Positions 40,176 to 62,377 of a stretch of 64,000 bases of DNA are shown here, one piece after another. A program made the position numbers and the translations under genes. The DNA is from a virus. How positions within the stretch are numbered: position 1 is the stretch's first letter; the number at the start of each line of letters is the position of its first letter. The DNA is taken from the IMG/VR virus record IMGVR_UViG_3300048091_000425; one strand, 5' to 3'. The notes below the pieces were generated by a model. It saw only the letters and a program-made list of their open reading frames with translations. It searched no databases and was not told where the DNA came from.

Positions 40176-40199
40176 GTGTTTAGAGTATAGTATCAATAA
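40176..40199 (-). promoter_or_regulatory. 24-bp palindromic operator over -10 (copy 1)
   Basis: GTGTT-TA-GAGTATAGTA-TC-AATAA; minus-strand promoter TTGTCA-17-TATACT. Confidence 0.7.
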
Positions 40200-40287
40200 G
40201 CCATAATGACAATATATGTAATACGTTAAATTACCGATAAGTCTGAAATTCCCGAAGAAAAGGGCCTATCACGGCCCTTCTCTTCAC

Positions 40288-40563
40288 TCAGGCAGCCTGA
40301 TCCAGGCCGTACAACTGAGCATGGGCGGTATGCCAGTCAGGCGGGAGGTTGGCCACTTCGCCCTGGGCCCACTCCATCACGGCCTGCTCAGCGCCCAGCG
40401 CGTACATCGGCACCACATGGTCATAGCGGGCTGCAGCCACTTTTAGGATGCCGTCGGCGTACAGGCAACTGATGACCAGCTCAATGTCCTCAGGCCTGCC
40501 GTAGGTGACCACAGCGCTCCAGGCACTGGCGTCAGGCTGGGTAGTGATGGATTTGATCCGCAT
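40288..40563 (-). CDS. small hypothetical protein
   Basis: AGGAG RBS; 91 aa. Confidence 0.7.
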   Translation of the reverse strand: MRIKSITTQPDASAWSAVVTYGRPEDIELVISCLYADGILKVAAARYDHVVPMYALGAEQAVMEWAQGEVANLPPDWHTAHAQLYGLDQAA

Positions 40564-40577
40564 AGCGATGGCTCCTG

Positions 40578-41498
40578 TCAGACCTGCTCGTCCGGGACAC
40601 CCAGCGTCGAAGCCCGTGCGACTTCGAGCAATGCCAAGGCCCGTTCTTTTGCTGCCAAAAAATGCTCCGATTCGCAGCCATCAATGTCAAAGATGCTAAG
40701 GGCTTGAAGTTCAGCCAAGACCGAGAAGGCAGCGTCTCGGCTGGCGAGCAGTTCAAGCACGTCGGGTTCGCTGTAAACGCGTTCCTGCCGATCCTGGGGG
40801 CCTGAACTCCAGTGGGTTGCGTAATCCCAAAAGCCACGACCGTCCTTCCAACGCCAAGCAGCGACGCGCATTCCGCGCAGCATTTCACCTGACCACGGAG
40901 CCTGAACACGAACAAGACCGGCTGGAGATCCGGCTGGCGCTGGGGCCAAGGTCAAACTCTCGACTGGCAGGTCAATCAGAACAGGATTGCTGATCGCTTC
41001 CTGCGTGGCCTTGGCTGCACCAAACCAGCCACCGCCACGCCATGCGTTATCGCACATCTCGTACTTTTCCACGGTCACAGAGTCGTCGATATTCACTTTC
41101 GCCCAAAAGACCTTGCCATCAATCAGTACGGCAGCCTCAGCGCCGACGCTTGCGTCGTAAATGCGCAATGCCTTGCCTGGGTTCCGCTCAAGAATCCGGC
41201 GATAGCTGCTAATCGCGGTTTGGTGGGTCAGTGGCAGGTCAATCAGGATCGGGGTTTCGATAGCTTTCTTGGTCGCCTCATGCTCACCGAACCAGCCGCA
41301 GCCGATCCAGCCATGACCGTCCATTTCTGGCATATCGGCCAGTTCAATGGAGCCAAGTTCGCTTTCCTGACCCCAGCGCAACGTGTCACCGTCCAGAACG
41401 ACTATCACCTTACTGGCATCATACAGGCGCAAAGCCTTGCCTGGGTTTTGTGACAGGATTTGGCGATAGGTTTCTTTGACCGACTGGTAGGTGAGCAT
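40578..41498 (-). CDS. hypothetical protein with two tandem about-90-aa repeats
   Basis: Y R.IL..NPGKALR.YDAS...GW.G.GWFG...AT..AI..P.LIDLP occurs twice; GGAG RBS. Confidence 0.8.
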   Translation of the reverse strand: MLTYQSVKETYRQILSQNPGKALRLYDASKVIVVLDGDTLRWGQESELGSIELADMPEMDGHGWIGCGWFGEHEATKKAIETPILIDLPLTHQTAISSYRRILERNPGKALRIYDASVGAEAAVLIDGKVFWAKVNIDDSVTVEKYEMCDNAWRGGGWFGAAKATQEAISNPVLIDLPVESLTLAPAPAGSPAGLVRVQAPWSGEMLRGMRVAAWRWKDGRGFWDYATHWSSGPQDRQERVYSEPDVLELLASRDAAFSVLAELQALSIFDIDGCESEHFLAAKERALALLEVARASTLGVPDEQV

Positions 41499-41558
41499 GG
41501 CGTTCTCCGGTGTGCGCGATGACTGAGGCAGTCCCAACGAATGTGGTAAATTGCCTTC

Positions 41559-41582
41559 GTGTTACGACTATAGTGCAAACAC
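41559..41582 (-). promoter_or_regulatory. 24-bp palindromic operator over -10 (copy 2)
   Basis: GTGTT-AC-GACTATAGTG-CA-AACAC. Confidence 0.75.
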
Positions 41583-41655
41583 ACATGCAGCGCTAGACGC
41601 TGGGCGAAATAAATTTATCCCTAGCGTCATACTCATATTGATGCGTCAGGTCGAG

Positions 41656-42423
41656 TTAAGCGACCAGCTCCACCAGGGGGATGCGGCTCATGTGCATCGT
41701 GTAGCCGGTGAGCTTTTCCAACGCAACGTACTTATCAAACAGCTCCGGTCGCAGCTTACGGCCATTCTTCAGGTCGCGCTTGTTGGCCATGATGCAGAAC
41801 ACGCAGCTCAGGCGGTCATTGCCTTCTGCATAGGCGTAGTGCGGTTTCTGCCCTGCCTGCTCGATGATGCCAAAGACCTCAGGGGACGACAGGTCGTGAA
41901 TCGGCAGCCACTCATACCATGTGTTGACGCTGTTGGAGTCGCGCTCATTGAGTCGAAACGGGGCACGTTTAGCCCGGCCTGGGGATTCCTGGGCACGCAG
42001 GCCGAGGCAGTTTACGATCACCTTGTAACCGTTGGCCTTTGCATACCGGCGCACCTCACGCTGGATCGGCCCGCGCTTGAGGTCACTGGTGCATTGACGG
42101 GTGGAGGCCGACGGCCAGCTTGGCACTTCCGGGCGACTCTCGAACCGGCGTTCAACCATTTCCAGCAAGGTTTTGGTTGCGTGGGCCACGATGAACGGCA
42201 AGCCGGCTGCTGCTGCCTGGTCGCGAGCCAGCTCCATGGCGCCTGGCCATTCCATTTCACCCAGGGACGCATGGACGACGATCATCTGCGCCGCTGGAAC
42301 GCGCTCCAGCAGCCGAACCAGCATGGCCTGGGAGTCCTTGCCCCCTGAGTGGTTGCCCACAAAAAGAGCCCCTGCTGCTATCAGGCTATCGATCTGGTCT
42401 TCAAGGGTAGGCATGGTATTCAT
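41656..42423 (-). CDS. PAPS-reductase-family (PP-loop) protein
   Basis: NHSGGKDSQAM PP-loop, CTSDLKRGPI, GLRAQESP.RA, RLSCVFCI. Confidence 0.85.
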   Translation of the reverse strand: MNTMPTLEDQIDSLIAAGALFVGNHSGGKDSQAMLVRLLERVPAAQMIVVHASLGEMEWPGAMELARDQAAAAGLPFIVAHATKTLLEMVERRFESRPEVPSWPSASTRQCTSDLKRGPIQREVRRYAKANGYKVIVNCLGLRAQESPGRAKRAPFRLNERDSNSVNTWYEWLPIHDLSSPEVFGIIEQAGQKPHYAYAEGNDRLSCVFCIMANKRDLKNGRKLRPELFDKYVALEKLTGYTMHMSRIPLVELVA

Positions 42424-42457
42424 GAATTATGATCCTGGCGATGTTCAGTACCGGCTC

Positions 42458-42475
42458 AGCCCCAATTAAGGGGCT
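42458..42475 (-). repeat. intergenic GCCCC-N6-GGGGC hairpin
   Basis: AGCCCCAATTAAGGGGCT. Confidence 0.65.
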
Positions 42476-42487
42476 TGTGGCTGGCGC

Positions 42488-42748: not shown

Positions 42749-42771
42749 GTCCCGTGATTTGCTTGGTCTAC

Positions 42772-42800
42772 TACTGACAATGCCCCAGTAAAGGGGCTTG
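42772..42800 (-). repeat. intergenic GCCCC-N6-GGGGC hairpin with TACTGACAA flank
   Basis: TACTGACAATGCCCCAGTAAAGGGGCTTG. Confidence 0.7.
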
Positions 42801-43226: not shown

Positions 43227-43628
43227 TCAGTAGTTGTAGGACAGTCTCACGATTACAGAGAACTCCCGAGGTTTAGTTCGGTGAGCGTCGGCGTAGTAGC
43301 TTGCACAGCCACAGCAGTCGTATTCATGACCACAGCCACCACCGGACAGCGACTCCTCAATGGCCCGATTCATCCACTTGGTGAAGCTCGGTCGGCCATT
43401 ACTGACTACACGACGGTAGGTGGCTTTGGCGGCTTCCAGCTCAGCAGGAGTCAGCACGACCAGCCGTGCGGTTGAGCCGCCATCCGACGCTTCTTCGTCA
43501 CTCGGCGCAGCCACCACGTAGGACTTGGAAGTACGGGCGTTGCACACCTGCTCCCAATTGTCCAAATGGGCATAGCCTTGGACGTAGCGAGAGGTCAGTC
43601 GGCTTTCGATGCTGATGGCTGTTTTCAT
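43227..43628 (-). CDS. phage-like hypothetical protein with Cys cluster
   Basis: GCGHEYDCCGC motif; 133 aa. Confidence 0.75.
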   Translation of the reverse strand: MKTAISIESRLTSRYVQGYAHLDNWEQVCNARTSKSYVVAAPSDEEASDGGSTARLVVLTPAELEAAKATYRRVVSNGRPSFTKWMNRAIEESLSGGGCGHEYDCCGCASYYADAHRTKPREFSVIVRLSYNY

Positions 43629-43722
43629 GCTTATGCACTCTTTTAGTCTGATCTGGTACTGGCAAGGCCTTTGCGGCTTGCTCAGTTGGCAACCCCGAAA
43701 ACGAATGGGGTAAATTGCCGCC

Positions 43723-43746
43723 GTGTTATGACTATAGTCAAAACAA
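43723..43746 (-). promoter_or_regulatory. 24-bp palindromic operator over -10 (copy 3)
   Basis: GTGTT-AT-GACTATAGTC-AA-AACAA. Confidence 0.75.
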
Positions 43747-43829
43747 ACGCCCAGCGCTAGTGGCCAGGCGAAATAAATTAACCTTTAGAGTTATACGCCG
43801 ACCAGCGAAAGACCTCAGAAATAGGGCAA

Positions 43830-44087
43830 TCAACCTTCAGCGCTATTGTTCACCTGGCGCAGCATTGCGACACCCCAGGAGAAACCGTGCTCATGGGCTG
43901 TCACTACCGCGTCCCGAAGCTCCTGACCGGTAGAAATCCTGCAGAAGCTGACACGCACAATTTTTACATCGTTACGCATGAGTGCTAGACATGCCCGTAG
44001 ATCGATCCTATCAATCGTGTAGCCCAGCGCCCTGGCTTGCTCGGTGACGACTTCGCGCTTCTGCTTGGCTGTTAGATCAGTGAGCAT
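43830..44087 (-). CDS. small hypothetical protein
   Basis: GGAG RBS; 85 aa. Confidence 0.6.
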   Translation of the reverse strand: MLTDLTAKQKREVVTEQARALGYTIDRIDLRACLALMRNDVKIVRVSFCRISTGQELRDAVVTAHEHGFSWGVAMLRQVNNSAEG

Positions 44088-44737: not shown

Positions 44738-45178
44738 TTACCAGCCGCGCAGGCCGTGGCTGCGCATCAGAACCGACGTGGAGGTGCGCAGCGGCTCGCG
44801 CATGTAGTCCAGCAGGCTTTCAGCGTCTGCATCAATGACCTCGTCCAACATTTCCTCAGAAGTTTTGCCGTAATGGTCGGCGATGTTCTTGAGTATCGCC
44901 GCCCTGGTTTCATCGTCGACGGCGGTCAGAAACTCTTTGTTGCGCAGGGCATTGGCCGGAACGGCAGTGAACGTGAAACCTTCAGCAGGACGGCCATCAG
45001 CACCTTTGCACTCACGTTGCGCTTTGACGGCAGCGTCGTCAGCTTCTTCTTTGGACGCAAACACCATGGCCATCTTGACCGAACCCATGCAGGCGGTGCC
45101 CCACTGGTCGCACCAGGCGTGGAGGTAATCTTGATTCTGGCCTTTCGAGCCGTAGGTGCGTTTGATTACGTAAGCCAT
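44738..45178 (-). CDS. hypothetical protein
   Basis: GGAG RBS; 146 aa. Confidence 0.7.
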   Translation of the reverse strand: MAYVIKRTYGSKGQNQDYLHAWCDQWGTACMGSVKMAMVFASKEEADDAAVKAQRECKGADGRPAEGFTFTAVPANALRNKEFLTAVDDETRAAILKNIADHYGKTSEEMLDEVIDADAESLLDYMREPLRTSTSVLMRSHGLRGW

Positions 45179-45199: not shown

Positions 45200-45223
45200 G
45201 TGTTTAGAGTATAGTGGCAATAC
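45200..45223 (-). promoter_or_regulatory. 24-bp palindromic operator over -10 (copy 4)
   Basis: GTGTT-TA-GAGTATAGTG-GC-AATAC. Confidence 0.7.
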
Positions 45224-45588: not shown

Positions 45589-46212
45589 TTAAAGCTCAGA
45601 AAACTGGATAGTCTTGAAGGCCTTGAAGTGTGATCTGATCTTTTCCTTGGCCTCCCTGGGGCTAGAAGCTTTGAAAGACCAACCCATGAAGGTGCAGTCG
45701 AAATACGGACGACCCGTCGGGCTATCCTGAACCCATTGACCACTGCCATAGCCATGCATGCCGTTGATGGTAAACGCGAGGCTGTCGTAGGCCGGGCAGT
45801 CGCAGTCATCGTTACTGCAGCGGCATTGGGAAATACCACGCACGGCAATGACGTCCTTGACCTTGCCGGGCTGAGAGACGACAGCTTGATCAGGATCCTC
45901 CACCGCTTCCTTGATTTTCAGATAAATACCATGTGACCCACACGATTTTTTGACCAATTGCTGGTATGGATGGCCCCACTGAAGCGTGATTAGTGCTCTT
46001 TTGTGGCCGTCTTTAACCATGCGCAAAAGGGGCACGGTGCTGTTTTTGAGCTGTTCGATGAATACCTTATAGTTGGTTTCCTCTTCCGAACTAAGCCCAA
46101 ACAACACATCACCAGGAACCCATCCCGACGTCGCCAAACGCTGAAGTAGCAATTCGAGATTTGCGATGTCTTGCCGGGTTGCTGTCGTTGCCGTCGTTTC
46201 TGGAGTGGTCAT
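45589..46212 (-). CDS. hypothetical protein with Cys cluster
   Basis: 207 aa; CRCSNDDCDC. Confidence 0.75.
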   Translation of the reverse strand: MTTPETTATTATRQDIANLELLLQRLATSGWVPGDVLFGLSSEEETNYKVFIEQLKNSTVPLLRMVKDGHKRALITLQWGHPYQQLVKKSCGSHGIYLKIKEAVEDPDQAVVSQPGKVKDVIAVRGISQCRCSNDDCDCPAYDSLAFTINGMHGYGSGQWVQDSPTGRPYFDCTFMGWSFKASSPREAKEKIRSHFKAFKTIQFSEL

Positions 46213-46253
46213 ATCAAGGCTCTACCATTGTGGTTGAATTGCCGCTTCATTTC

Positions 46254-46277
46254 GTGTTTTGACTATAGTCTAAACAT
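46254..46277 (-). promoter_or_regulatory. 24-bp palindromic operator over -10 (copy 5)
   Basis: GTGTT-TT-GACTATAGTC-TA-AACAT. Confidence 0.75.
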
Positions 46278-46329: not shown

Positions 46330-47013
46330 ATGACCGAGATCAATTCAGCAGAGAACGACTTCAAGGCCGAGTACGATGCTGCGTGCTCCCCTGCCGATCC
46401 AATGTGCCAGACGCCGACTTTTGAGCAATTCCGCCAGGTCATCAAAGATAAGCTTGAAGAAGAAGGCGAGCATGAAGGCCGTGTACTGCTGCTCGGCTTT
46501 GGCGACTTCGACGAGTTCTTTACCTGGCTTGATACCTTGAACGCCTATGAGGCTCGGGATACGGATGACGTGACCAGCTACCGGGCAGGGCTCGAAGCGA
46601 TTTACAAGTCACTGGTCGCTGAGTACAAGGCCGTGAAGGCCTGCCCATTCTGCGGCGACTGTGACTCGAACCTGTCCAACAACGGCATCGAGAGTAATTT
46701 CGTGGTTTGTGACTGTGGTGCAGAAGGCCCTCCCGGCACCGATGACATTCAAGCAGTCATTGAATGGAACCGACGGGCTCAACTCTCAACAGGTGGGATC
46801 GTCGGCTATCAAGTGCAGACCCCGGCTGGCGATCAGTGGGCAGGTCGACCGGAAAATATCATCCTTAGCCAAGCGACGGCGATCAAGGATCTGCGCACGG
46901 CTCGAAAAGGCCAAGGGAAGTGGCTCATGGTCGCGGTGCTGGAAGGCGACGTCGAAAATCCTTCTTTCGAGGATTGGCCCGAATGGCTCATGGGAACGAG
47001 AAACGAAGGCTGA
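46330..47013 (+). CDS. multidomain protein with internal Lar-like zinc finger
   Basis: VKACPFCG...VVCDCGAEGP...AVIEWNRRA. Confidence 0.7.
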   Translation: MTEINSAENDFKAEYDAACSPADPMCQTPTFEQFRQVIKDKLEEEGEHEGRVLLLGFGDFDEFFTWLDTLNAYEARDTDDVTSYRAGLEAIYKSLVAEYKAVKACPFCGDCDSNLSNNGIESNFVVCDCGAEGPPGTDDIQAVIEWNRRAQLSTGGIVGYQVQTPAGDQWAGRPENIILSQATAIKDLRTARKGQGKWLMVAVLEGDVENPSFEDWPEWLMGTRNEG

Positions 47014-47415: not shown

Positions 47416-47850
47416 ATGAACGACTGGAAAGCATCACTGCAGGAAGCCCTGGAATCCGCTCATAGCGTTGCATTCACCTTTGCCGCGTCAATGGATGACT
47501 ACAAGCGTTTCGACGGGGCTATCGAGATCTTGGGGGCCCTGATCGAGGGTGACGATGATATTGATGAAGAGGCCCTGCCGTACCTGCGTGTACGCAGCTC
47601 ATCCGGGGAGGTTTTCCTCGCAGAGCCAGATGAACTTCGAAGCAACGACCTGGCGTCCTTGACCCGCTTGATTGAGGCAGTAGCTCGACCCTTCGCTCTC
47701 GCGAGAGAGGTCGGATATGCAAGCCCTGGCGATCTGATGAATTACGGAACCGAACAAGAACGATCAGCCTTACTTTCCGGCATTCAGACCCAGAGAAGAC
47801 CAAGTTTTTGGCCCTCGTCGATCTTAGACCTGGCTAAACGTTGTGTTTGA
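47416..47850 (+). CDS. hypothetical protein, tandem paralog 1
   Basis: MNDWKASL...; clearly similar to the next gene, including upstream ACCATTGGAGAC. Confidence 0.8.
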   Translation: MNDWKASLQEALESAHSVAFTFAASMDDYKRFDGAIEILGALIEGDDDIDEEALPYLRVRSSSGEVFLAEPDELRSNDLASLTRLIEAVARPFALAREVGYASPGDLMNYGTEQERSALLSGIQTQRRPSFWPSSILDLAKRCV

Positions 47851-47881
47851 CCCGTTCAACTCAACCATTGGAGACGCCCTC

Positions 47882-48262
47882 ATGAACGATTGGAAAGCCC
47901 CACTGCTGAACGCCCTTGAAGCCGCTCAGACGCTTGAGATTCGCTTTAACTCAGTCATGGACTGCACCAGGCACTTAAACGGCCCTGTGACGCTGCTGGG
48001 CGCCGTGATCGAGCGCAACGAGGACTATGACGATGAAGCCCTTCCCTATTTCTTCGTCAAGGCTGCTGATGGCGAAGTGTTCCAGGCTGGAGAGGATGAG
48101 CTGCAGGTAATCCATGAGGCTGATCAGCCAACCTTAAACAACCTTATTCAAGTGGTGGCCATGCCGTTTGCGCATGCCCGAGACGCTGGCTGGTTGAGCC
48201 CCGGCCACCTAATGGACGAAGGTTCAGACGAACAAAAGGCCAGTTTCCTGGCCTCTCTTTGA
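47882..48262 (+). CDS. hypothetical protein, tandem paralog 2
   Basis: MNDWKAPL...EALPY..V....GEVF.A..DEL. Confidence 0.8.
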   Translation: MNDWKAPLLNALEAAQTLEIRFNSVMDCTRHLNGPVTLLGAVIERNEDYDDEALPYFFVKAADGEVFQAGEDELQVIHEADQPTLNNLIQVVAMPFAHARDAGWLSPGHLMDEGSDEQKASFLASL

Positions 48263-48711: not shown

Positions 48712-49107
48712 TTACGCTCCGGTGGGTCTAGGGGTTGGTTTGGCCAGTTCTTCGGCGATTTCAAGATCGATTTGGCGCAGGGCTGCCGCAGCACTCTGCT
48801 CAAGGTTGTAGCGTGTCTGGCGCAGGGCATCGAGCCGAGACGAATACAAAGCGCATGCACCCTGCGTATCAGGCCTTAGCGGCCTGGTGTTACCTTCGCT
48901 GAACGTTCCATGGTGTACGCGGTTGGTCACAGCCTTCATGGGGCGATTCCAGTTGACCGACGCGTTTCCTTGCTTGAACCCATAGAGGTTGTTGCTGGTT
49001 TCCAGATTCAGCGGTCTTACATCTGGTGCGATAGCACCGGTGTGCTGCAAAGCCAGCTGGATTTCCAGCTGCTCCACGTATTCTTTTTCCGCTTTGCTCA
49101 TCGCCAT
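48712..49107 (-). CDS. phage-like hypothetical protein, tandem paralog 1
   Basis: MSKAEKEYVEQLE..LAL.HT...LEQ.AAAALR.IDLEI shared with the neighbour. Confidence 0.75.
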   Translation of the reverse strand: MAMSKAEKEYVEQLEIQLALQHTGAIAPDVRPLNLETSNNLYGFKQGNASVNWNRPMKAVTNRVHHGTFSEGNTRPLRPDTQGACALYSSRLDALRQTRYNLEQSAAAALRQIDLEIAEELAKPTPRPTGA

Positions 49108-49505
49108 TGGGGTAGCTCCACATGACAAGGATCGGTTGGGTTCTCATCTTCCTTGAGAATTTCCAGATCAATGGCTCGCAAGGCGGCAGCGGCCTGCTGC
49201 TCCAGCTCGTAACGCATGTGTCGCAAGGCGTCCCGACGAGTCGAGTGCAGCCGAATGCCCTTTTGAGAAGACACCCTTGGAGGCTTCTCACTGCCAATGC
49301 CACTCGATCCGTGACCTGACCTCGTGGTGACCGCCCTGTTTGGACGAAACCATTCAACGCGCACATGCCCACGGGAAAAGCCGAACGTTTCCTTGTCGCC
49401 GACGGTTTCAGGGTCAATATCGTGATCGACCGGCGCCGTGTGCCTCAGGGCCAACCGGGCTTCTAGCTGGTCGACGTAGTCACGTTCCTTTTTGCTCATC
49501 GGCAT
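49098..49505 (-). CDS. phage-like hypothetical protein, tandem paralog 2
   Basis: MPMSKKERDYVDQLEARLALRHT... Confidence 0.75.
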   Translation of the reverse strand: MPMSKKERDYVDQLEARLALRHTAPVDHDIDPETVGDKETFGFSRGHVRVEWFRPNRAVTTRSGHGSSGIGSEKPPRVSSQKGIRLHSTRRDALRHMRYELEQQAAAALRAIDLEILKEDENPTDPCHVELPQWR

Positions 49506-51229: not shown

Positions 51230-51253
51230 GTGTTTGAGGTATACTCATAACAC
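51230..51253 (+). promoter_or_regulatory. 24-bp palindromic operator over -10 (copy 6)
   Basis: GTGTT-TG-AGGTATACTC-AT-AACAC upstream of 51278. Confidence 0.75.
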
Positions 51254-51766: not shown

Positions 51767-52182
51767 GAGATAAAACCGTGAATGCGTTCATCAACCCCGC
51801 CGAGGCAGAAGACCGCAATGTCCTCTGCGGAGGTTGCGGTGGAGCCGTGAAAGGACACTGGTCTAAGTGTCCTCATTGCGATACTAAATTCCATGCTAAC
51901 AAATGGGGCTACGCCCGCCTGTGCAAGAACCCCAATTGCATTCGTACTGAGAGTGCCGGGCATCCCCACGGCTTGTGCAAGCATCACTACCAGCTGCGCA
52001 AGTACCGGCAGACGCAGTCAGCGCTCCAGGCCAATTGCAGCTGTGGCGGAAAAGTAAGCTTTGGCCACAGTGACTGCTCTCGCTGCCGCTCTCTCAAGGA
52101 GAAGAGAGAAGAATCGCAACACCGCTGTCAATGCCAATGTGGTGGCCTCGGATGCCAGTCGATAAAGGAGCAGGATCAATGA
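51763..52182 (+). CDS. Cys-rich multi zinc-ribbon protein
   Basis: Several CxxC/CxC pairs. Confidence 0.7.
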   Translation: MRDKTVNAFINPAEAEDRNVLCGGCGGAVKGHWSKCPHCDTKFHANKWGYARLCKNPNCIRTESAGHPHGLCKHHYQLRKYRQTQSALQANCSCGGKVSFGHSDCSRCRSLKEKREESQHRCQCQCGGLGCQSIKEQDQ

Positions 52183-52367
52183 CCAAGCTGCACATGTGGA
52201 GCCGTCTCGGCATGCTGGGAAAAATCGTTGTCCGCTGTGGTCGCAAGGTGAAAGCGACTGAGTTCACCGACCAGGCCTCAAAGGTGACGTGCCAGGCCTG
52301 CCTGAATGCCATGGCCAAGGCGCCCAGCTTCAAGGATCGTCTGAATCAAGGGAGCGCCCAATCGTGA
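52179..52367 (+). CDS. small zinc-finger protein
   Basis: H...CGR....VTCQAC; overlapping start/stop. Confidence 0.6.
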   Translation: MTKLHMWSRLGMLGKIVVRCGRKVKATEFTDQASKVTCQACLNAMAKAPSFKDRLNQGSAQS

Positions 52368-52651
52368 GCCGTGAACCTGAGATCGCCACCCCGTACACCC
52401 ACCCCGACCATGAAACAATTGGCCGCATCTTCAAATTTTGGGATGGTCACCGGTATTACTGCGATTCCTGGGAGGAAAATCTAGGTTTCTGGATGACCCG
52501 TGTGGACGCACCGCCTGAAAATCGTGCCGATAAAATGGGCGAGTTCCGCAAAAACGTGTCGGAGCGGGCTATTGGTCGAACGTTCCATCGTGACTACACA
52601 GCCAGCGGTGAGCGCGAAGGCCTGGAATTTGTAAAACAAAACGCCCCGTAA
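52364..52651 (+). CDS. phage-like hypothetical protein
   Basis: GTGA overlap; HRYYCDSW...GFWMT...NVSERAIGRTFH. Confidence 0.65.
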   Translation: MSREPEIATPYTHPDHETIGRIFKFWDGHRYYCDSWEENLGFWMTRVDAPPENRADKMGEFRKNVSERAIGRTFHRDYTASGEREGLEFVKQNAP

Positions 52652-53267: not shown

Positions 53268-53483
53268 CTACAGGATAATGAGTTCTTTGTTTTGGCCCGT
53301 GATCGGGTCGTGAATCAGGATCTGTTTACCACCTTGAAGCTCTTTGCGCAGGCGGTGCTGTAGGGCCACGGTTTGACGCAAGACTTCGGTTTTGGTGACT
53401 CCGCTGTCATCAGCCATTTCAATCATCAGTGTCATGGTGTCTTGCGGCAACTTCACCGTCAGCTTGTGCTTCTCCATCGGCAT
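53268..53483 (-). CDS. ribbon-helix-helix (CopG-like) DNA-binding protein
   Basis: KLTVKLP (beta strand), helix, GVTKTEVLRQTV; GTACGGC-N5-GCCGTAC inverted repeat at 53525-53543 upstream. Confidence 0.75.
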   Translation of the reverse strand: MPMEKHKLTVKLPQDTMTLMIEMADDSGVTKTEVLRQTVALQHRLRKELQGGKQILIHDPITGQNKELIIL

Positions 53484-53992: not shown

Positions 53993-54016
53993 TTATTTGC
54001 GGTATACTCGCAACAT
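53993..54016 (+). promoter_or_regulatory. 24-bp operator over -10 (copy 7, degenerate left arm)
   Basis: TTATT-TG-CGGTATACTC-GC-AACAT. Confidence 0.6.
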
Positions 54017-54033: not shown

Positions 54034-54270
54034 ATGCACGCACTTCAGAAGTCCACGTCCACCCTCGCTTCCAAGCCGACCATGTCTGCGCCAATGCGGA
54101 TGCAGCCGACCTATCCGGCCCTCGTCAAACAGCCTTCGGCCAGCCTGGAAACCCCGGTTGATAACCACCTGACCCGCGCTGACTTCCAGAATTTCCTCTC
54201 CGCGATTCAAGTTGGCCGCGTAGCACGTCAGCAGCGCATCGTAAAAAAGCTTTCTGACATGCATTTCTAA
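54034..54270 (+). CDS. small hypothetical protein
   Basis: GGAG RBS; 78 aa. Confidence 0.6.
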   Translation: MHALQKSTSTLASKPTMSAPMRMQPTYPALVKQPSASLETPVDNHLTRADFQNFLSAIQVGRVARQQRIVKKLSDMHF

Positions 54271-54523: not shown

Positions 54524-55435
54524 ATGAAGCGTTCCGTTCTGTTTCTGACAACGGCGTCCATGCTGCTGGCCGCGTGCGACAACTCCACCCCTCCGCCTAA
54601 ACCTGTGGCCGACATATCGACCACCATGGAGTCTGAGGAACCGGCTATTCAAAGCCAGGAAGTCAGTCAGCTTCGAGCGGAAAACGACGACCTGCGCAAT
54701 GAACTGGCAAAACTCCAGGCCATCGACCCGACTGTCAAAGACGCGTACTACGGTGTCGATGAAAAAGGCGAGCGTGTGCTTAACGTCGTTCGCGAAGAAA
54801 CCAACGGCGCCAGTGCCTCATCGCTTAGCAGTACAGTATGGCCGTTGCTCGGCGGCATGGCCGCTGGTGCGGTAATTGCCAAGATGGCCTCCAGTGGTGG
54901 CGTCTCCAATTACGCTTCTTACAACCCTCCAGCCCGCGCCCAATCTTTCTACAGCCGTGATGACGAGCGTGCCGAACGCAATCGTGCCTACGACAGCTAC
55001 CGCAATCGCTATCAGAACCAGGCGCAGCCCAAGCAGGCGTACAACAGCTACACGAACGACCGTAGCAGCTACAACAACGACCGCAACAGCTTCAACCAGC
55101 CAAAACCTGCCGCCGTGGTTCAGCGCACTGTGAATGTGGCGTCACCGTCGACCGCAGTCGCTTCCGATCAGCAGAAGATTTCGCAGTATTACGCGCCGAC
55201 CCGCCAGGCAGCGCCTTCCGGCAATGACTACAGTCGCCAGAACGCGACGACCAGTTATCAGCCGGCGAAGATCAGCACCCGTATCGAACCTGTTTACAAA
55301 GCCGCCCCGGCGCCTGCGTACAAGGCCCCGGCCTACCAGGCTCCGAAGACCCAGGCTTACCAAGCTCCGAAAGCCCAGCCCTACAAGGCCCCGGCCTTCA
55401 AGACGTCTTCGAGCAGCGGGAGCCGTCGCCGATGA
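54524..55435 (+). CDS. lipoprotein, DUF1190/YgiB-like, with low-complexity tail
   Basis: LAAC lipobox; WPLLGGMAAG..IAKM segment; YKAP/YQAP repeats; coupled to a Gsp-synthetase-like gene as in ygiB-ygiC. Confidence 0.65.
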   Translation: MKRSVLFLTTASMLLAACDNSTPPPKPVADISTTMESEEPAIQSQEVSQLRAENDDLRNELAKLQAIDPTVKDAYYGVDEKGERVLNVVREETNGASASSLSSTVWPLLGGMAAGAVIAKMASSGGVSNYASYNPPARAQSFYSRDDERAERNRAYDSYRNRYQNQAQPKQAYNSYTNDRSSYNNDRNSFNQPKPAAVVQRTVNVASPSTAVASDQQKISQYYAPTRQAAPSGNDYSRQNATTSYQPAKISTRIEPVYKAAPAPAYKAPAYQAPKTQAYQAPKAQPYKAPAFKTSSSSGSRRR

Positions 55436-56745
55436 TCAAGCAAGACCACCGTGTCCGGTTTGACCTGAATCAGCTTGTCGGTGACAAGCTGCCCACCGTT
55501 AAGCAGATCATCGATATCAGCGCCCTGCAGGGGCAGTACGCGTTCCAGTTGAACAATCAGGACGCGCTGCCCTTCTACTCGATTCCGCAACACGCGGTCG
55601 AACAGGTGCAGGCGCAGGCCAACGACGCCTATCAGATGATGATCGAAGCGCTGGATCAGCTGTTTTACAAGCCCTGGGACATTTGCGAGTACTTCGACAG
55701 CCCGCTGATCCGTGAGCATGGCCGGTACTTCATCCACTATGCTCACCACACCTTCAAGTCCCGTGGGATGATCGGCCAATCCCTCAGCGGTCGTTTCGAC
55801 ATGGGGTTTGACCCGGACACCGACCGTGTCACCGGTATCTACGAGTTCAACGGCGCCGTCACCGGCCTGCTGTTCGAGTCGACCAGTCTGCAGAACGATC
55901 TGGTGCAGCAAGTAACCGGTTCAAACCAGGCTCAGTTAAACGATTGGTCTCAATTGACAACGAATGCACTGGCCGCTTACAACCTGCAGCATGGGCGTCG
56001 CGTGGCCGTGGTCGCTAACCTGGCTTACCCGGAAGATCTCACCAATGCCGAGCTTGTCTCTCAGTTGTTCGGCGCACACGCGGAAACGCACCTGCGCGAT
56101 CTGTCTCAAGGCCCCTACTTTGAGCTGATGAACCCGACCAAGCCCTGGATGTTGACCGTCGAGAACGAGCACGGTACGCAAGAATTGCCGTTGGACGTCA
56201 TCTACCTTGACCTCCCATGGGATGAGATCGTCGAAGCCAGCCCTGAAGCTTTCCAGCAATGGAAGTCCTGGGCGGACAACGTGGCGTTCATCGAGCCGGC
56301 CTGGCGTTGGTTCATGTCCCACAAGGGCCTGATGGCCTACGTGACCCACTTGCTGGAAACCGATGAGGATTACCGGCGCCGCTGGCTGCATGTGCCGATG
56401 ATCCCTACCCGCCTGACCCCGAATCATTTCCTGAGGCACGGCCTGCCGTTTGTGTCCAAACCCGCCCAGGGCTATGGATCTCAGAATATCGAGTTCTATG
56501 AGGCCAGCAGTCTGATGCATAGAACCGAGGGTGATTTGCGCGACATGCCGCAGGTGCACCAGGCGTATTGCCCGGCTGGATCCTTAGAGCCCGGCACGGT
56601 CTTTACCCTGGGTGTGTGGATGGCTTCCGGGTATCGAGGCCAAACCACCGATCACCCAGCCTATGCGTCGGCCCTGTGCATTCGCGAGTTCGACGAAAGC
56701 CTGGATCGCGACAGCGGACGGTGCCTGCCGCACATGATCCGATAA
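55432..56745 (+). CDS. glutathionylspermidine-synthase-like ATP-grasp protein (YgiC-like), divergent
   Basis: GRFD...YEFN, LPWDEI, FIEPAWR...HKGL, KP..G..S.NI. Confidence 0.8.
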   Translation: MIKQDHRVRFDLNQLVGDKLPTVKQIIDISALQGQYAFQLNNQDALPFYSIPQHAVEQVQAQANDAYQMMIEALDQLFYKPWDICEYFDSPLIREHGRYFIHYAHHTFKSRGMIGQSLSGRFDMGFDPDTDRVTGIYEFNGAVTGLLFESTSLQNDLVQQVTGSNQAQLNDWSQLTTNALAAYNLQHGRRVAVVANLAYPEDLTNAELVSQLFGAHAETHLRDLSQGPYFELMNPTKPWMLTVENEHGTQELPLDVIYLDLPWDEIVEASPEAFQQWKSWADNVAFIEPAWRWFMSHKGLMAYVTHLLETDEDYRRRWLHVPMIPTRLTPNHFLRHGLPFVSKPAQGYGSQNIEFYEASSLMHRTEGDLRDMPQVHQAYCPAGSLEPGTVFTLGVWMASGYRGQTTDHPAYASALCIREFDESLDRDSGRCLPHMIR

Positions 56746-57588: not shown

Positions 57589-57612
57589 TTATTATGACTA
57601 TAGTGACAACAT
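57589..57612 (+). promoter_or_regulatory. 24-bp operator over -10 (copy 8)
   Basis: TTATT-AT-GACTATAGTG-AC-AACAT; promoter TTTACA-17-TATAGT. Confidence 0.7.
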
Positions 57613-57631: not shown

Positions 57632-58171
57632 ATGCCGACTGACAACAGAATCTTCACCTACACCGAGAAAGAACGTGCGCACTACAGCACCTTGAACTTT
57701 ATCGACAGTGGTCGAACCTACGTTTTGGCTGTCGGTGTGGACTCTCAAGAATCCATTTCGGCATTGGTTCCACAAATCCAGGCCGTCTATGACGACAGCA
57801 GCCGCGCTCCTGATGGTCAGTTCACCGTTCGCCAGATGGGTGAGTCGGCTGTCTGCGTTGTCTTCACCCGTAACTGTGCTGCCGATGCGGACGCTATCGG
57901 CATTTGCTCAAGTCAGTTGAAGCCGAGCAGCGCCGCCCGGCAACTGGCCCGCGAGTTCGCGCCGGTCGACGGGGATGCTCCTTTTATCGCCTCCCTTCAT
58001 GCTGCACTGGTCGCTTTTGCTGACAAACACATGAGCGAAAAAGAAATCAACAATCGCCTTGAGGAACTGGAAATGTCCCTCAACGGCGATGAAACCGACG
58101 ATGACACCCGTTCTGATGTTTTGGACGAGATCGCTGAGCTTGAATCGCGTCTCCCTGACTCTCAGGCCTAA
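57632..58171 (+). CDS. hypothetical protein
   Basis: GAGGA RBS; acidic helical C-terminus. Confidence 0.8.
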   Translation: MPTDNRIFTYTEKERAHYSTLNFIDSGRTYVLAVGVDSQESISALVPQIQAVYDDSSRAPDGQFTVRQMGESAVCVVFTRNCAADADAIGICSSQLKPSSAARQLAREFAPVDGDAPFIASLHAALVAFADKHMSEKEINNRLEELEMSLNGDETDDDTRSDVLDEIAELESRLPDSQA

Positions 58172-58182
58172 GGAGCAACACC

Positions 58183-58566
58183 ATGTGTAAAGAACTCAGC
58201 ACCGCCTGCAAAGCCTGCCCTTGGCGCGTTGACAGCCCACGCGGCTGGTTGGGCGCGAGCAGCCCTGTGGAATTCCTGCAGCAAAGCAAGGCTGAGTTGC
58301 GCATGCCCTGCCACTTGCACGTCGACTATGAGCAGGATGACTGGCAGGAACAGGCTGACCAGGCCCCGCAGTGCGCCGGTCGTGCAATCCACATGGCCAA
58401 CCGCTGCAAAGTTCCGATGAACCCTGAATTGATCAAGGCAAAGGCGGATCGCGCTGCCGTGTTCAGCAACCCTCAGGATTTCATCGACCATCACAGCATT
58501 GGTGCCGAAAAGCCGGTCATCATGATTGTCATGGGCCAGGTTTCTGTCATCGGGAGCAAGTCATGA
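58183..58566 (+). CDS. Cys/His-rich phage-like protein
   Basis: CKACPWR...CH...CAG. Confidence 0.75.
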   Translation: MCKELSTACKACPWRVDSPRGWLGASSPVEFLQQSKAELRMPCHLHVDYEQDDWQEQADQAPQCAGRAIHMANRCKVPMNPELIKAKADRAAVFSNPQDFIDHHSIGAEKPVIMIVMGQVSVIGSKS

Positions 58567-58940
58567 GCCAACAGAGCGAGCTGATGCGCACGGGCGTTCG
58601 CTACGTCATCACGTTTAACAACGCGGCGAGCCACCTACGGTATCGGGAGTCCGACAAGGAATCTGGCCCCTTCGACTACTACCGCATTGGCGGTCACCAG
58701 GGCGATTCTGTGACTTTCATCCTCAACCACCGCGTTATGGTCGTTGAGGCTGATATGCATGCCGACGTGCGGTTGAATGTCACCTTCGATGCCGCCCGCT
58801 CGGGTCTGTTCCGAGACTTCTGCAAAGCCCACCTGGCCGCCATCGAGCTGGAGGGCGGGAAGGCCTTCATGCGTTTCTACGACAATGAATGGTCGCCGAA
58901 GGCTTCTTTCGAAGTGCCCATGCAGCTCGTCCGCAAATAA
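58563..58940 (+). CDS. hypothetical protein
   Basis: ATGA overlap; 125 aa. Confidence 0.75.
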   Translation: MSQQSELMRTGVRYVITFNNAASHLRYRESDKESGPFDYYRIGGHQGDSVTFILNHRVMVVEADMHADVRLNVTFDAARSGLFRDFCKAHLAAIELEGGKAFMRFYDNEWSPKASFEVPMQLVRK

Positions 58941-58951
58941 TAAGGAAATCG

Positions 58952-59152
58952 ATGATGGCAACCACCGCAGCGGCCTACGCAACACAACAGGGCATTTCGA
59001 TCAGCACCGCTCGAAAGCGCCTGACTGAAATGGTTGAGGCTGGCCTGGCTACCGTTTCGTACAACGTCATCATCGGCCAGGGTTCCCGCAAGCGTGGGGC
59101 TCGAAGCCACATGGTCTCGATCCGAGGCAACCTGTACAACATCAGTCAATAG
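58952..59152 (+). CDS. small winged-HTH DNA-binding protein
   Basis: AAAYATQQGISISTARKRLTEMVEAGLATV is a typical wHTH pattern; AAGGA RBS. Confidence 0.65.
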   Translation: MMATTAAAYATQQGISISTARKRLTEMVEAGLATVSYNVIIGQGSRKRGARSHMVSIRGNLYNISQ

Positions 59153-59163
59153 GATCGACTTGT

Positions 59164-59412
59164 ATGGAACTTTGGTGGAAACAATACACCCGTTGGCGGG
59201 CCCGGAATTTCATTGGGCTCAACCGGGATTACGGCGATGGCTACCTGTACCGCATCGAGTACCACGATGGCCGGCACTGGCGGACGGATTGTCCACAAAG
59301 CCTGCGGTTTGGCAACAAAGAGGCCGCCGAGGCCTACATCCGCAAACGCGGTTTCGAGCCGGAACCGTACAACGAAAGCGAAAAAACCGTGAGGTGGTGG
59401 CGTGAGCGCTAA
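59164..59412 (+). CDS. small hypothetical protein
   Basis: 82 aa; overlaps the next start. Confidence 0.6.
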   Translation: MELWWKQYTRWRARNFIGLNRDYGDGYLYRIEYHDGRHWRTDCPQSLRFGNKEAAEAYIRKRGFEPEPYNESEKTVRWWRER

Positions 59413-59860
59413 TATTTCGACTGAATTGCCAGATCCTGCGAAGCTGATCATTACCCCGGCTATGTGCGAAGCCGGCGACCTGGCCGCAGGAAACCTTATC
59501 ACCGCAGGCGTGGCCGAAACCATGAATGGCCTTGGCGGAAGCATGAAGAAGGACGAAGCCCCGCCAGAAATCAGCCAGTACTTTGGCCGGACGGAGTCCA
59601 GCGTTGTGCTGATGTTCATGGCCATGGACGCTGTCGCACCGGAACCCTTTGCACAACCCGTGTCAGAAGGCATGGAAAAGGCCGGTTCAGACATGCTGGC
59701 CTTGATGTTCGACGTAACCATGTTGCGTCATATGCGAAAGAACGACCCTGAATTCGATCTGGCCGACTTGACGAAGGATGAACTGGCCCTGCTTGATGAC
59801 CCCAATCCTCCGGTTTACTTGATGTACCAGGCGATGATCCAACACGCCAAGGCAAACTAA
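59402..59860 (+). CDS. hypothetical protein
   Basis: GAGGTGG RBS with GTG; 152 aa. Confidence 0.7.
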   Translation: MSANISTELPDPAKLIITPAMCEAGDLAAGNLITAGVAETMNGLGGSMKKDEAPPEISQYFGRTESSVVLMFMAMDAVAPEPFAQPVSEGMEKAGSDMLALMFDVTMLRHMRKNDPEFDLADLTKDELALLDDPNPPVYLMYQAMIQHAKAN

Positions 59861-59868
59861 CTTTCGAG

Positions 59869-60198
59869 GTGGCCATGACAGCTCTCAGCAACCCCCAGCG
59901 CCGTAACCTGGCCATGGCGATCATCCGCTACCGCTCCCGCGTCGGCGGGCTCGGCATGCTGGTCAACAACAAATGGTGCGCGATCATTAAGCGCTCGCCC
60001 GAGCTGAAGGCTCTTATCAAGAAAAAGCTGGTGGTTCAGGTGCGCCGCGAGGCTCTGGGCCGCAAGCGTGAGACCTATCTGGTGCCAGCCGACGGCATCA
60101 CGTTGGAAACCGCGCCGGGTTGCCCGGAGTGCGGCAGGCCCCTCACCCACTTCCGTGCACTGATGAGCGACAGCGGCAGCGTCTGCTATCACCAATAA
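59869..60198 (+). CDS. basic hypothetical protein with C-terminal zinc ribbon
   Basis: CPECG...H...C.H. Confidence 0.7.
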   Translation: MAMTALSNPQRRNLAMAIIRYRSRVGGLGMLVNNKWCAIIKRSPELKALIKKKLVVQVRREALGRKRETYLVPADGITLETAPGCPECGRPLTHFRALMSDSGSVCYHQ

Positions 60199-60226
60199 TC
60201 CACCCATAACACCCAAGGGACTGAAA

Positions 60227-61018
60227 ATGCCTCAAAACAAGAATTTCGTTGAACGCAGCGTGGGTGCTGACCAAGAATTGCCGTTCGAGACGCTGAAGTT
60301 CAACGACATGCGCAATGCCGACGGCAGTCAAGGTGATTGGTTTACCCACATCCTGCTCAGTTACACACCTAAACTTGAATTAGACCAGTTGACCGACGAC
60401 CCAGGATTTAACCCTGAGAGGATGCAGGTCACTATTCACGTCAACGATGTTCGCATCACCCACGCGACATTCGAGGCGATGATTTCTGAATTCAGCGGCA
60501 GGATGCTGCTGCAGCGGGTTCAACGTGCCCGCCTGGACAGCTTTGAAGACGCGGTAAAAATCAAAGCCGAGCAATTGCTGCGTGACTCCATTGGAGCGCT
60601 GCAGGACAACGCGTACAAGCTGGTGGAGAACCTGGGGCACCTCGCCGATCAAAGCAGCACGATTATCGAAAACGTCTGGAATGCACCGTACATGCATCAC
60701 ATCGACGCCAAAATGAAGCGCGCAGGCCTGAACGCCATTGAACACTTCGGCCCGCTCGATCCCAATGACGTTCAACGGATACAGCTAGCCGAAAGGGTTT
60801 ATCGCGCCATGATGACCGCTCGGCCAAAGTACCCGGTCAACTCTATGAAGGTCACACTCCCCGCCGTTTTGCCCCTAGAGTCGGTAACTGGCAGCCCCCA
60901 GGCTGACCTGATCGCCCAAGGCCGTCAGCAGATGCTGGACGAGGTTATGGCCGCGCTGGACGCCCAGGGTATTTTGTTTCACCGCGAGCCGCGTCAGCCC
61001 GAGGAAAACCAGAGCTGA
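60227..61018 (+). CDS. hypothetical protein
   Basis: 263-aa ORF. Confidence 0.8.
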   Translation: MPQNKNFVERSVGADQELPFETLKFNDMRNADGSQGDWFTHILLSYTPKLELDQLTDDPGFNPERMQVTIHVNDVRITHATFEAMISEFSGRMLLQRVQRARLDSFEDAVKIKAEQLLRDSIGALQDNAYKLVENLGHLADQSSTIIENVWNAPYMHHIDAKMKRAGLNAIEHFGPLDPNDVQRIQLAERVYRAMMTARPKYPVNSMKVTLPAVLPLESVTGSPQADLIAQGRQQMLDEVMAALDAQGILFHREPRQPEENQS

Positions 61019-61060
61019 TAATTTGATGTCAATTCATCATAATTGTTTTGACCCTCCGGC

Positions 61061-61084
61061 ATGTTATGACTATACTCACAACAT
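61061..61084 (+). promoter_or_regulatory. 24-bp operator over -10 (copy 9)
   Basis: ATGTT-AT-GACTATACTC-AC-AACAT; promoter TTGACC-17-TATACT. Confidence 0.8.
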
Positions 61085-61129
61085 CAGCCGGGGTGGTCAG
61101 TTCCACCCCTTTAGCCAGAGGTGGTCATC

Positions 61130-61411
61130 ATGAGTCAATTGCATACCCAGTCCCCAAAACGCTTTGTTGCACTGGCCGATGCCATGGCGGTTAAGCATTA
61201 CGGGTTGGACGCAAACGAGTTCAACGTTGACGAAGAAACCGCCCTGCAGCACATTCAGGATGGCCTGAGTGTGATCGACGTTCTGAACGCTGCTGCAGAC
61301 GCTTTTGACCTCGACCGATTGGACATTGATAGCTTTGTCCCTTCTAAACGCCCGCTAACCGAAGAAGATCTGAATACGGCTGATGCAGAACTGGCAGCCG
61401 ATATCCAATAA
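61130..61411 (+). CDS. small acidic hypothetical protein
   Basis: GAGG RBS; 93 aa. Confidence 0.7.
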   Translation: MSQLHTQSPKRFVALADAMAVKHYGLDANEFNVDEETALQHIQDGLSVIDVLNAAADAFDLDRLDIDSFVPSKRPLTEEDLNTADAELAADIQ

Positions 61412-61451
61412 GCCGCATGGCTAACCCATAAACTCACTTTCAGGAACTGTC

Positions 61452-61829
61452 ATGCGCAAACGTACCCTTAAACAGACCAGCGCCTATCGCAACGGTGCCC
61501 TCACGATCCTGCGAAATGCCGGTGCACAGATCAACGAGAGCGGGCATAAGATGTACACCGTGGAAACCACGCTCGGGACGCTGGAAATCTCGGTTTGGAA
61601 CGCCTCCATCATGTGCATGTTTGACGATGTGGCCCGCGCCAAAGAGCATTTCGGCTCGTCTCCCCACGGTAAACTTAACCCGCACTCTGGCAAGTGGAAC
61701 TGGATGGGCGGCATGACGCACGAAGGCGACATGATCGACCTCGGCGACTTCTCCAATGCTTTAGAGCGAATTCTGCCTGAATCGCGCACGCCAAACCCTA
61801 CCCTGCCGCTTGCACCCTACGCAGCCTGA
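61452..61829 (+). CDS. phage-like hypothetical protein
   Basis: ETTLGTL.IS...LNPHSGKWN. Confidence 0.75.
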   Translation: MRKRTLKQTSAYRNGALTILRNAGAQINESGHKMYTVETTLGTLEISVWNASIMCMFDDVARAKEHFGSSPHGKLNPHSGKWNWMGGMTHEGDMIDLGDFSNALERILPESRTPNPTLPLAPYAA

Positions 61830-61840
61830 AGGAGATCGAC

Positions 61841-62311
61841 ATGAGCACCTACCGCCCAAAACGCGCCTCCGCTCGCTGGATGGAAGACGCACCCGCTTAT
61901 GTGCTGAGCATTCACGATTCCGGCGAAAAGGTTAATGACCGGTACACCGTCTGTTTCGGCTGGCCACTGTGGGAAGAGCGCATGGGCCGCACCGTGCCGT
62001 ACCTGGGCTTCAATGAAAACCCAACGTCCCCGAACATGGGTGTCAGCCAGTTCGGTGAGTGCGATGCCCACCGCCAAGGCCTGGGTAAGAAAATCCGCTG
62101 GAATGATCTTCCTGTGGAGCTGCGCAAACACGTGAAAACCCGAGTTGAAGGCAGTCCTGATGGGGTCATCGTGGCCAAGTTACAGCGAGACACCTCTCTG
62201 TGCTGGGTCTTGAAGTCAGAAAGCGGCCAAGTCACTTATGGAACCAGGTTCAAGACAAAAGCCGAGGCCAATCAGTACGCCCAAGAGCATTTGATCGTAG
62301 TCACCAGTTAA
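61841..62311 (+). CDS. phage-like hypothetical protein
   Basis: AAGGAG RBS; DRYTV...MGVSQF...LGKKIRWNDLP. Confidence 0.75.
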   Translation: MSTYRPKRASARWMEDAPAYVLSIHDSGEKVNDRYTVCFGWPLWEERMGRTVPYLGFNENPTSPNMGVSQFGECDAHRQGLGKKIRWNDLPVELRKHVKTRVEGSPDGVIVAKLQRDTSLCWVLKSESGQVTYGTRFKTKAEANQYAQEHLIVVTS

Positions 62312-62353
62312 GCAAAAAAATCTGTCAATTGATTGTATATGTTGCTTCAGTTG

Positions 62354-62377
62354 GTGTTTAGAGTATACTCGCAACAC
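62354..62377 (+). promoter_or_regulatory. 24-bp operator over -10 (copy 10, best match)
   Basis: GTGTT-TA-GAGTATACTC-GC-AACAC. Confidence 0.8.

Follow-up and report, generated by a model that had tools for sequence, protein, structure and literature searches.

Introduction

Which protein reads a 24-bp palindrome that recurs over the −10 box of ten promoters, and what would follow for the genes downstream? The question is raised by IMG/VR virus record IMGVR_UViG_3300048091_000425, a stretch of 64,000 nucleotides referred to below as the window, the right-hand part of which carries these promoters. The reading that we consider most likely from its sequence is a global operator set of the KorA/ArdK kind, whose repressor would be of the PapB family and which occupies an island of orphan genes on a Pseudomonas megaplasmid of about 1 Mb. 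The palindrome would be the operator of a dyad-symmetric, dimeric repressor that is encoded by the island itself and covers the −10 hexamer and the start site, a proposal to which we assign a probability of roughly 0.6. About 16 promoters of the sigma-70 type would be governed in this way through 15 sites, one of them possibly bidirectional.

Results

Palindromic sites at the promoters of the window

A pattern search of the window allowing up to three mismatches recovered nine of the ten sites listed in the original prediction, against none expected from 100 shuffles. The remaining one, site 53993 (sites are named by their first position), lies beyond the three-mismatch pattern, the extra mismatches being in its left arm. 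The weight-matrix scan that had been proposed was also carried out. With a matrix built from the ten sites, each scored 30.7–36.4 bits in gene direction, and the next best match in the window scored 7.4, so that the ten stand far above all else (at least 30 versus 7.4 bits). All ten sites are therefore present, and neither the pattern search nor the matrix scan found a site in the first 39 kb, in agreement with the original prediction. As a complete set, however, the ten fall short, since in relatives five more sites sit past the right end of the window.

The consensus in gene direction is nT(G/A)TT-N3-(A/G)-(C/G)-TATA-(C/G)-T-(C)-NN-AACA(C/T), 24 bp in length. Every site is followed by a start codon 17–94 nt downstream, with a Shine-Dalgarno sequence in between. 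A −10 hexamer is found at all sites, and a −35 box matching at least four of six positions at four of the ten. Four sites (40176, 53993, 57589 and 61061) were also called independently by a simple sigma-70 scan; their −35 and −10 pairs are given in Table 1. Good −35 boxes had been claimed for several cases, which is correct; a claim for all would be wrong, as six sites are poor in this respect. The palindromes define five leftward and six rightward units with about 41 controlled genes in the window.

Site 46254 had been described as a promoter of the minus strand. A minus-strand gene does follow it, but the site scores 35.4 bits on the minus and 34.1 bits on the plus strand and may serve both. 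Its rightward use is uncertain, because the plus-strand −10 sequence in the related plasmid pPL1 is TATAGC.

Table 1. Palindrome sites and other features located in the window, with first and last positions
Feature	Position	Strand	Remarks
Site 1	40176..40199	-	gene direction TTATTGATACTATACTCTAAACAC; −35/−10 pair TTGTCA-17-TATACT (−35 at 17 bp); drives 39541-40137(-), 39232-39483(-)
Site 2	41559..41582	-	drives 40578-41498(-), 40288-40563(-); terminator-like hairpin 41602-41588 at −35 position
Site 3	43723..43746	-	drives 43227-43628(-) through PAPS-reductase-like 41656-42423(-); hairpin 43770-43748 abuts site
Site 4	45200..45223	-	drives 44738-45178(-) through 43830-44087(-)
Site 5	46254..46277	.	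perfect match on both strands; between divergent genes 45589-46212(-) and Lar-like 46330-47013(+)
Site 6	51230..51253	+	gene direction TATACT, reverse strand TATACC; drives 51278-52651(+)
Site 7	53993..54016	+	−35/−10 pair TTGAAG-16-TATACT (−35 at 16 bp); drives 54034-54270(+) through GSP_synth-like 55432-56745(+)
Site 8	57589..57612	+	−35/−10 pair TTTACA-17-TATAGT (−35 at 17 bp); drives eight genes, 57632-61018(+)
Site 9	61061..61084	+	−35/−10 pair TTGACC-17-TATACT (−35 at 17 bp); drives 61130-62311(+)
Site 10	62354..62377	+	drives 62405-62635, 62632-63039, 63067-63570, 63673 onward past window end
TTAATTTATTT box, about −57 to −47, distal-UP-element-like	43771..43781	-	other copies 41607, 45248, 46301; 4 matches vs 0.35 expected; kept in pPL1
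TGTCAATT box, second conserved cis element	62323..62330	+	other copies 51207, 53928, 61027; invariant in six lineages at two promoters
107-aa basic protein, rival candidate regulator	59875..60198	+	net charge +12; C-terminal CPECG zinc knuckle; best conserved protein of the island
66-aa winged helix-turn-helix protein	58952..59152	+	Pfam HTH_20 E=0.0017; in operon of site 57589
71-aa ribbon-helix-helix protein	53268..53483	-	Pfam RHH_1 E=0.0044
Lar-like restriction-alleviation domain protein	46330..47013	+	Pfam Lar_restr_allev 30.9 bits, cut-off 28.6; phrog_599 E=3e-7

Distribution, conservation and symmetry of the sites

The nearest relative of the window is plasmid unnamed1 (1,059,468 bp) of Pseudomonas serbica IT-P366, with 92–98% identity (85% in one stretch). 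The 1.17-Mb plasmid pPL1 of Pseudomonas silesiensis shows 81% identity over 75% of the tested stretch. In the 7.6-Mb genome of P. serbica the pattern matches 12 places, all within C1:643,261-677,433, while the reversed-pattern control gives 0; by matrix there are 15 sites, all within one 36-kb island. Fifteen sites are also found in pPL1, ten orthologous to those of the window and five corresponding to the stretch past its right end. Among 400 Pseudomonas species screened, no other genome had more than two pattern matches, a level equal to the control. A search of 185,579 species genomes returned the P. serbica plasmid alone with a relevant match, and 2.9 million viral contigs yielded no motif match. 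De novo motif scripts that used exact 5-mer arms, or 11-mers with one mismatch, were too insensitive, since even the known palindrome escaped them. Since the sites are confined to one island and are lacking in the other genomes searched, the regulon is island-wide rather than plasmid-wide and private to this plasmid lineage. A phage origin of the motif was considered and rejected: the viral contigs lack it, and phage-like genes occur in the island as single ones only.

Between the window and pPL1 the 24 site positions are 87% identical and the ungapped flanks 51–57%. The changes within the sites fall on variable positions, and the motif positions are fixed. Four metagenomic relatives, whose proteins are about 50% identical, keep both the gene order and the palindrome at the same promoters. 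In a collection of 46 distinct sites, no variation is seen at T4, T5, T11, T13, A14, A20 or A21, and the two halves are mirror images in their information profile. The gene direction is known for 40 sites, and the hexamer TATA(C/G)T is present on both strands at 31 of them, on the gene strand only at seven, on the reverse strand only at none and on neither at two. Such a distribution is consistent with a genuine −10 box superimposed on a protein site of dyad symmetry. The information content is dyad-symmetric, which speaks for a DNA-binding protein that acts as a dimer, as opposed to RNA polymerase alone. Window and P. serbica have identical flanks at site 62354 but carry its asymmetric inner part in exactly opposite orientations; how the inner part is oriented is thus, by this comparison, irrelevant to function.

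A PapB-family protein as candidate binder

In relatives, the operon of site 62354 holds both a ParB-like gene and a candidate repressor gene of the PapB family. Past the window it encodes a 220-aa protein, a 372-aa ParB-like protein and then a 122-aa protein with a PapB/FocB-family helix-turn-helix (HTH), hereafter PapB#1 (PF03333, 51.9 bits with a cut-off of 29.4). The PapB#1 gene lies about 2 kb past the right end of the window and is the sixth of this operon in P. serbica, in pPL1 and in the four metagenomic relatives. The operon of the last site codes for a second PapB-like protein (PF03333, 47.1 bits). Beyond this pair the complete P. serbica genome has no PF03333 gene, and each member of the pair lies in an island operon controlled by a palindrome. 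Homologues also occur elsewhere, the plasmids of Pseudomonas, Salmonella and Escherichia that carry them numbering in the hundreds.

Relatives of PapB#1 are 47–70% identical overall, and its recognition helix, G(V/I)S(R/K)SYFSQS(L/I)KR, is invariant; the corresponding helix of the second PapB-like protein varies among relatives. A structural model of PapB#1 (predicted local distance difference test, pLDDT, 80.4) has as its top match FocB (3m8j; E 2.8e-4, template-modelling (TM) score 0.75). The next matches are KorA-operator complexes, with probability 1.00, E 0.04-0.2 and a TM score of about 0.7 to the DNA-binding domain. The specificity of KorA is set by Arg48 and Gln53; in the KorA of R751, residue 48 is Lys (PMC2665229). 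In a profile alignment these two positions correspond to R/K57 and Q62 of PapB#1, which are invariant in seven relatives. FocB has Asn and Thr there, and the second PapB-like protein Pro and Val. On the DNA side, the commonest operator half-site, at positions 3–8, is GTTTAG, which is also the half-site of the KorA operator GTTTAGCTAAAC. In the palindrome the half-sites stand 8 bp apart, with the −10 hexamer in the gap. Taken together, sequence and model make PapB#1 the best candidate binder, an assignment that we put somewhat short of even odds.

From the observed sites, with their positions, conservation and symmetry, and from the gene content we infer that the promoters are repressed, which protein binds them and that they are induced transiently on entry, in the following way. 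A repressor bound to the palindrome would block RNA polymerase at the −10 box. PapB#1, in this role, would recognise GTTTAG-like half-sites in the manner of KorA of RK2, by the Arg/Lys and the Gln that open its recognition helix. Because the candidate gene sits, by position, within a controlled operon, the set would be autoregulated; a repressor that controls itself would in turn cause the set to fire transiently once the plasmid enters a cell that is free of repressor. A more elaborate version, in which a KorA/KorB-like circuit has been rebuilt from PapB/FocB-family and divergent ParB-like proteins and shuts down the 36-kb island of about 50 genes except for a burst on entry, is conceivable but in our view rather doubtful.

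Several points weigh against a PapB#1-operated repressor system. Six of the ten promoters have no recognisable −35 box. The logo of 46 sites was gathered with a matrix made from the first ten and is therefore partly circular. The match between the PapB#1 and KorA sequences is not significant by itself (profile E 0.96), and Pfam (E<=0.01) assigns PapB#1 to PapB only and not to TrfB/KorA. Because the half-sites are 8 bp apart here, while those of the KorA operator abut, the geometry of the KorA dimer is not simply transferable. Half-site positions 6–8 are just 46–65% conserved, which makes the GTTTAG match partly post hoc. The PapB#1 gene is outside the window, and its presence on the same replicon is presumed because the window edge is 97–100% identical to P. 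serbica. Finally, the island encodes other conserved candidates for DNA binding, namely the ParB-like protein, the 107-aa zinc-knuckle protein and the second PapB-like protein.

That one of these three is the binder, alone or together with PapB#1 in the manner of KorB and KorA, is the strongest of the alternatives, though we hold it to be unlikely. The genes of all three are in palindrome-controlled operons. All relatives retain the ParB-like protein, whose P. serbica and pPL1 versions share 94% identity. It has a sub-threshold match to TIGR00180 parB_part (E 9e-5), and a 47%-identical homologue is annotated as ParB; no sequence match to it was found in the PDB. The arms of chromosomal parS sites have the form TGTT...AACA. 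The 107-aa protein is 95% identical in pPL1 and still 77% identical in distant islands, where its neighbours are at about 50%. Its profile matches in the PDB are weak and confined to the CPECG zinc knuckle; it has no family match and falls only into unnamed clusters in the Atlas, and its model is poorly folded (pLDDT 43). It counts against the ParB-like protein that all 15 sites lie exactly on the −10 box, as those of KorA do, whereas KorB-type operators are found at varied distances from promoters. Against the second PapB-like protein stand its Pro and Val at the positions of KorA Arg48 and Gln53 and a recognition helix that varies although the operator is constant.

Other explanations of the palindrome

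An intrinsically symmetric, strong bidirectional sigma-70 promoter module, spread by duplication within the island and served by no dedicated regulator, would agree with the occurrence of TATA(C/G)T on both strands at most sites, with the placing of one site between divergent genes, and with the finding that neighbouring promoters have whole modules in common (UP-like box, hairpin and boxes in the 5′ untranslated region, 5′UTR). We nevertheless consider it improbable. The TT/AA pairs, invariant at 8 bp from the centre on either side, do not belong to the determinants of sigma-70, and the other side of most sites has no gene. Where the −10 symmetry is broken, it is always the gene strand that is favoured, and orthologues drift at the variable positions with the motif positions fixed.

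The original prediction had named as candidate repressors the winged HTH protein (wHTH; 58952-59152) and the ribbon-helix-helix protein (RHH; 53268-53483). Each has a weak family match (Table 1), and the wHTH gene is within a controlled operon. The unit that contains the RHH gene lacks a palindrome, and tblastn with the RHH protein gave no match in any PLSDB plasmid, pPL1 included. No homologue of the wHTH was found in the pPL1 locus or in the whole pPL1 record, and it is missing at the syntenic place in two distant islands (L039 and L042). Because pPL1 keeps the full set of 15 operators without either gene, both proteins are dispensable; as conserved repressor of the set they were rejected, and we regard this explanation as very improbable.

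Equally hard to credit is the idea that the motif is a promoter read by a sigma factor or RNA polymerase specific to the island. In its favour are the length and strong conservation of the consensus and the poor −35 region at six sites. Against it, a Pfam scan of about 75 island proteins found no sigma factor or polymerase gene, the motif is dyad-symmetric and built around an ordinary −10 hexamer, and at four sites the −35 box is ordinary as well.

Accessory elements of the promoters

The TTAATTTATTT box precedes four leftward promoters that have no −35 box, and at two of these a terminator-like hairpin is located there (Table 1, sites 2 and 3). Directly downstream of three leftward palindromes the 5′UTR contains a GGCAATT(T/C)A(C/A)C box (41535-41555, 43700-43720 and 46230-46250), which is kept in pPL1. 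The TGTCAATT box is present in 12 copies in the window, against 2.4 expected, and four rightward palindromes have a copy 15–57 nt upstream of them. A second regulator may act through this box.

Directly 3′ of site 61061 a leader hairpin, GGGGTGG...CCACCCC, occupies 61089-61113. In distant relatives its stem is replaced by the still complementary CGGCGAG...CTCGCCG, the hairpin being kept by compensatory changes. The promoter at site 62354 lies within an inverted repeat of about 50 nt that is capable of forming a hairpin (62341-62393). This repeat was compared in the window, L022:17600-17680, L025:35100-35160, L037, L039, L040 and L042. Its outer arms of 9–10 bp vary by lineage without loss of complementarity (CTTCAGTTG/CAACTGAAG in the window, GCTCTTTCCG/CGGAAAGAGC in pPL1, GCGGTTCCGG/CCGGAACTGC in L039); both mismatches in these arms are G.U on the sense strand. 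The pairs were read sequence by sequence, as the lineages use two different pairing registers. This repeat could act as an extended operator, extrude as a cruciform or fold into a hairpin in the RNA of read-through transcripts.

Gene content of the island

Nearly all genes are orphans in Pfam and phrog scans. The exceptions resemble phosphoadenosine phosphosulfate (PAPS) reductase, Lar and glutathionylspermidine synthase, and weak RHH, wHTH, DUF6283 and CbtA-like matches were also obtained. The Lar-like protein is the sole anti-restriction likeness among the controlled genes of the window. The PAPS-reductase-like gene 41656-42423(-) shows 77% DNA identity to a gene of the Pseudomonas phages Dolphis and Jeremy, gp103, which adjoins DNA methyltransferase genes there; this suggests gene exchange between phage and plasmid. 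Small genes form two tandem pairs of paralogues, at 47416-48262(+) with products of 144 and 139 aa and at 48712-49505(-) with products of 131 and 135 aa. A long minus-strand frame, 62830-63930(-), overlaps the plus-strand genes 62632-63039 and 63067-63570. It is probably not a gene, because the plus-strand products are better conserved (93% identity to pPL1 versus 75% for the minus frame).

[quoted passage not shown] Between the second PapB-like and the MvaT-like gene there is a 738-bp stretch without a called gene (L022:4774-5511, P. serbica C1:644.8-645.5 kb).

Discussion

A burst of expression on entry, produced by an autoregulated repressor on a mobile replicon, has been demonstrated for RP4 (PMC7314908) and p576 (PMC6294495), and this would hold here too, provided that the plasmid passes from cell to cell. 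The island's genes for SSB and the MvaT-like protein are in keeping with a role in establishment, although no palindrome precedes the SSB genes. For the anti-defence role suggested in the original prediction, the Lar-like gene is the one direct indication. The P. serbica genome has no match to PF07514, PF03432, PF08751, PF03135 or PF02534 (MOBH, MOBP and MOBF relaxases, VirB4 and VirD4-type proteins), a search that did not extend to Dot/Icm-type systems. It has one marginal TrwB match, 430 kb from the island. Plasmid pPL1 is typed as non-mobilizable. In leading-region anti-defence islands, which adjoin oriT and a relaxase gene on conjugative elements, the genes are on one strand, the T-strand (PMC11541004), whereas the units described here point both ways.

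The shared operator groups about 50 orphan genes into one co-regulated module and would offer a single handle, the removal or titration of the repressor, by which all of them could be turned on for functional screens. If the KorA/KorB-like circuit were true, the island would be a switchable library of new functions in establishment, anti-defence or host takeover. In megaplasmids of the pMPPla107 type close to nine of ten genes have no assigned function (PMC6482414). The present replicon resembles these megaplasmids in size, in a G+C content of 55% and in plasmid-borne tRNA genes (PMC6482414).

An orphan-gene island of similar appearance, with two PapB-like genes and mvaT, is seen in pQBR57 of P. 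fluorescens SBW25 (L028, 1971-35942). Its intergenic repeat is a different one, in which AGGA(A/T)TT is followed after about 12–25 nt by CGATGACACAG; it stands upstream of about nine genes and may represent another private promoter family. Because the repeated motif differs, pQBR57 provides no test of covariation between protein and operator.

Among known regulators, Reg576 of Bacillus pumilus plasmid p576 is autoregulated and shuts four establishment promoters, which are transiently de-repressed after transfer (PMC6294495); the original prediction had ascribed it to pLS20 in error. Reg576 is an RHH protein that acts as two cooperative dimers in a Gram-positive host, and the RHH gene of the window is not conserved with the operators. 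ArdK, in the CUP system of IncN pKM101 and IncW R388, is a KorA-family repressor that silences establishment and anti-restriction promoters as well as its own gene (PMC6289460, PMC9723621). The targets of R388 ArdK are direct repeats, to which it binds in the form of an asymmetric dimer (PMC9723621), whereas the sites described here are inverted repeats with mirrored information. The analogy to plasmid regulons of the ArdK/KorA type is supported more strongly than the original prediction could foresee, for the modelled fold of PapB#1 matches FocB and then KorA; ArdK of R388 itself appears far down the list, at noise level (E 1.2).

Membership of the PapB/FocB fimbrial regulators (PF03333, PDB 3m8j) is borne out for the island proteins by the Pfam scores of both and for PapB#1 also by fold. 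Unlike in the fimbrial systems, no fimbrial genes are near the PapB genes of the island. PapB#1 has Arg/Lys and Gln where FocB has Asn and Thr, and its predicted target is a palindrome on a −10 box. If PapB#1 is the binder, the PapB/FocB family would comprise KorA-like global regulators of plasmids and not fimbrial regulators only.

The closest parallel is KorA with its operator OA in the IncP-1 plasmids RK2/RP4. In RP4, seven promoters, among them that of the KorA operon itself, have the palindromic KorA operator at their −10 region, and KorA is encoded next to a ParB-family co-regulator; its regulon comprises kil, kla and kle genes of obscure function, which are induced in fresh transconjugants (PMC7314908, PMC2665229). 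The likeness extends to one palindromic operator over the −10 box of many promoters, to an HTH fold with R/K and Q as predicted reading residues and a GTTTAG half-site in the operator, and to a candidate repressor gene beside a ParB-like gene, the 372-aa neighbour of PapB#1 recalling the KorA-KorB pair. There are also differences. The KorA operator GTTTAGCTAAAC is 12 bp long, while the operator here has 24 bp with its halves split by 8 bp. PapB#1 belongs to PapB in Pfam rather than to TrfB/KorA, and its model has a long C-terminal helix in place of the beta-strand dimer module of KorA. No gene for ParA (IncC) is present, and the host replicon, of about 1 Mb, is without a recognised relaxase. 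An operator with split half-sites and the −10 box in the gap would, in comparison with that of KorA, provide a test case of how one HTH reading head may be used in a new dimer geometry.

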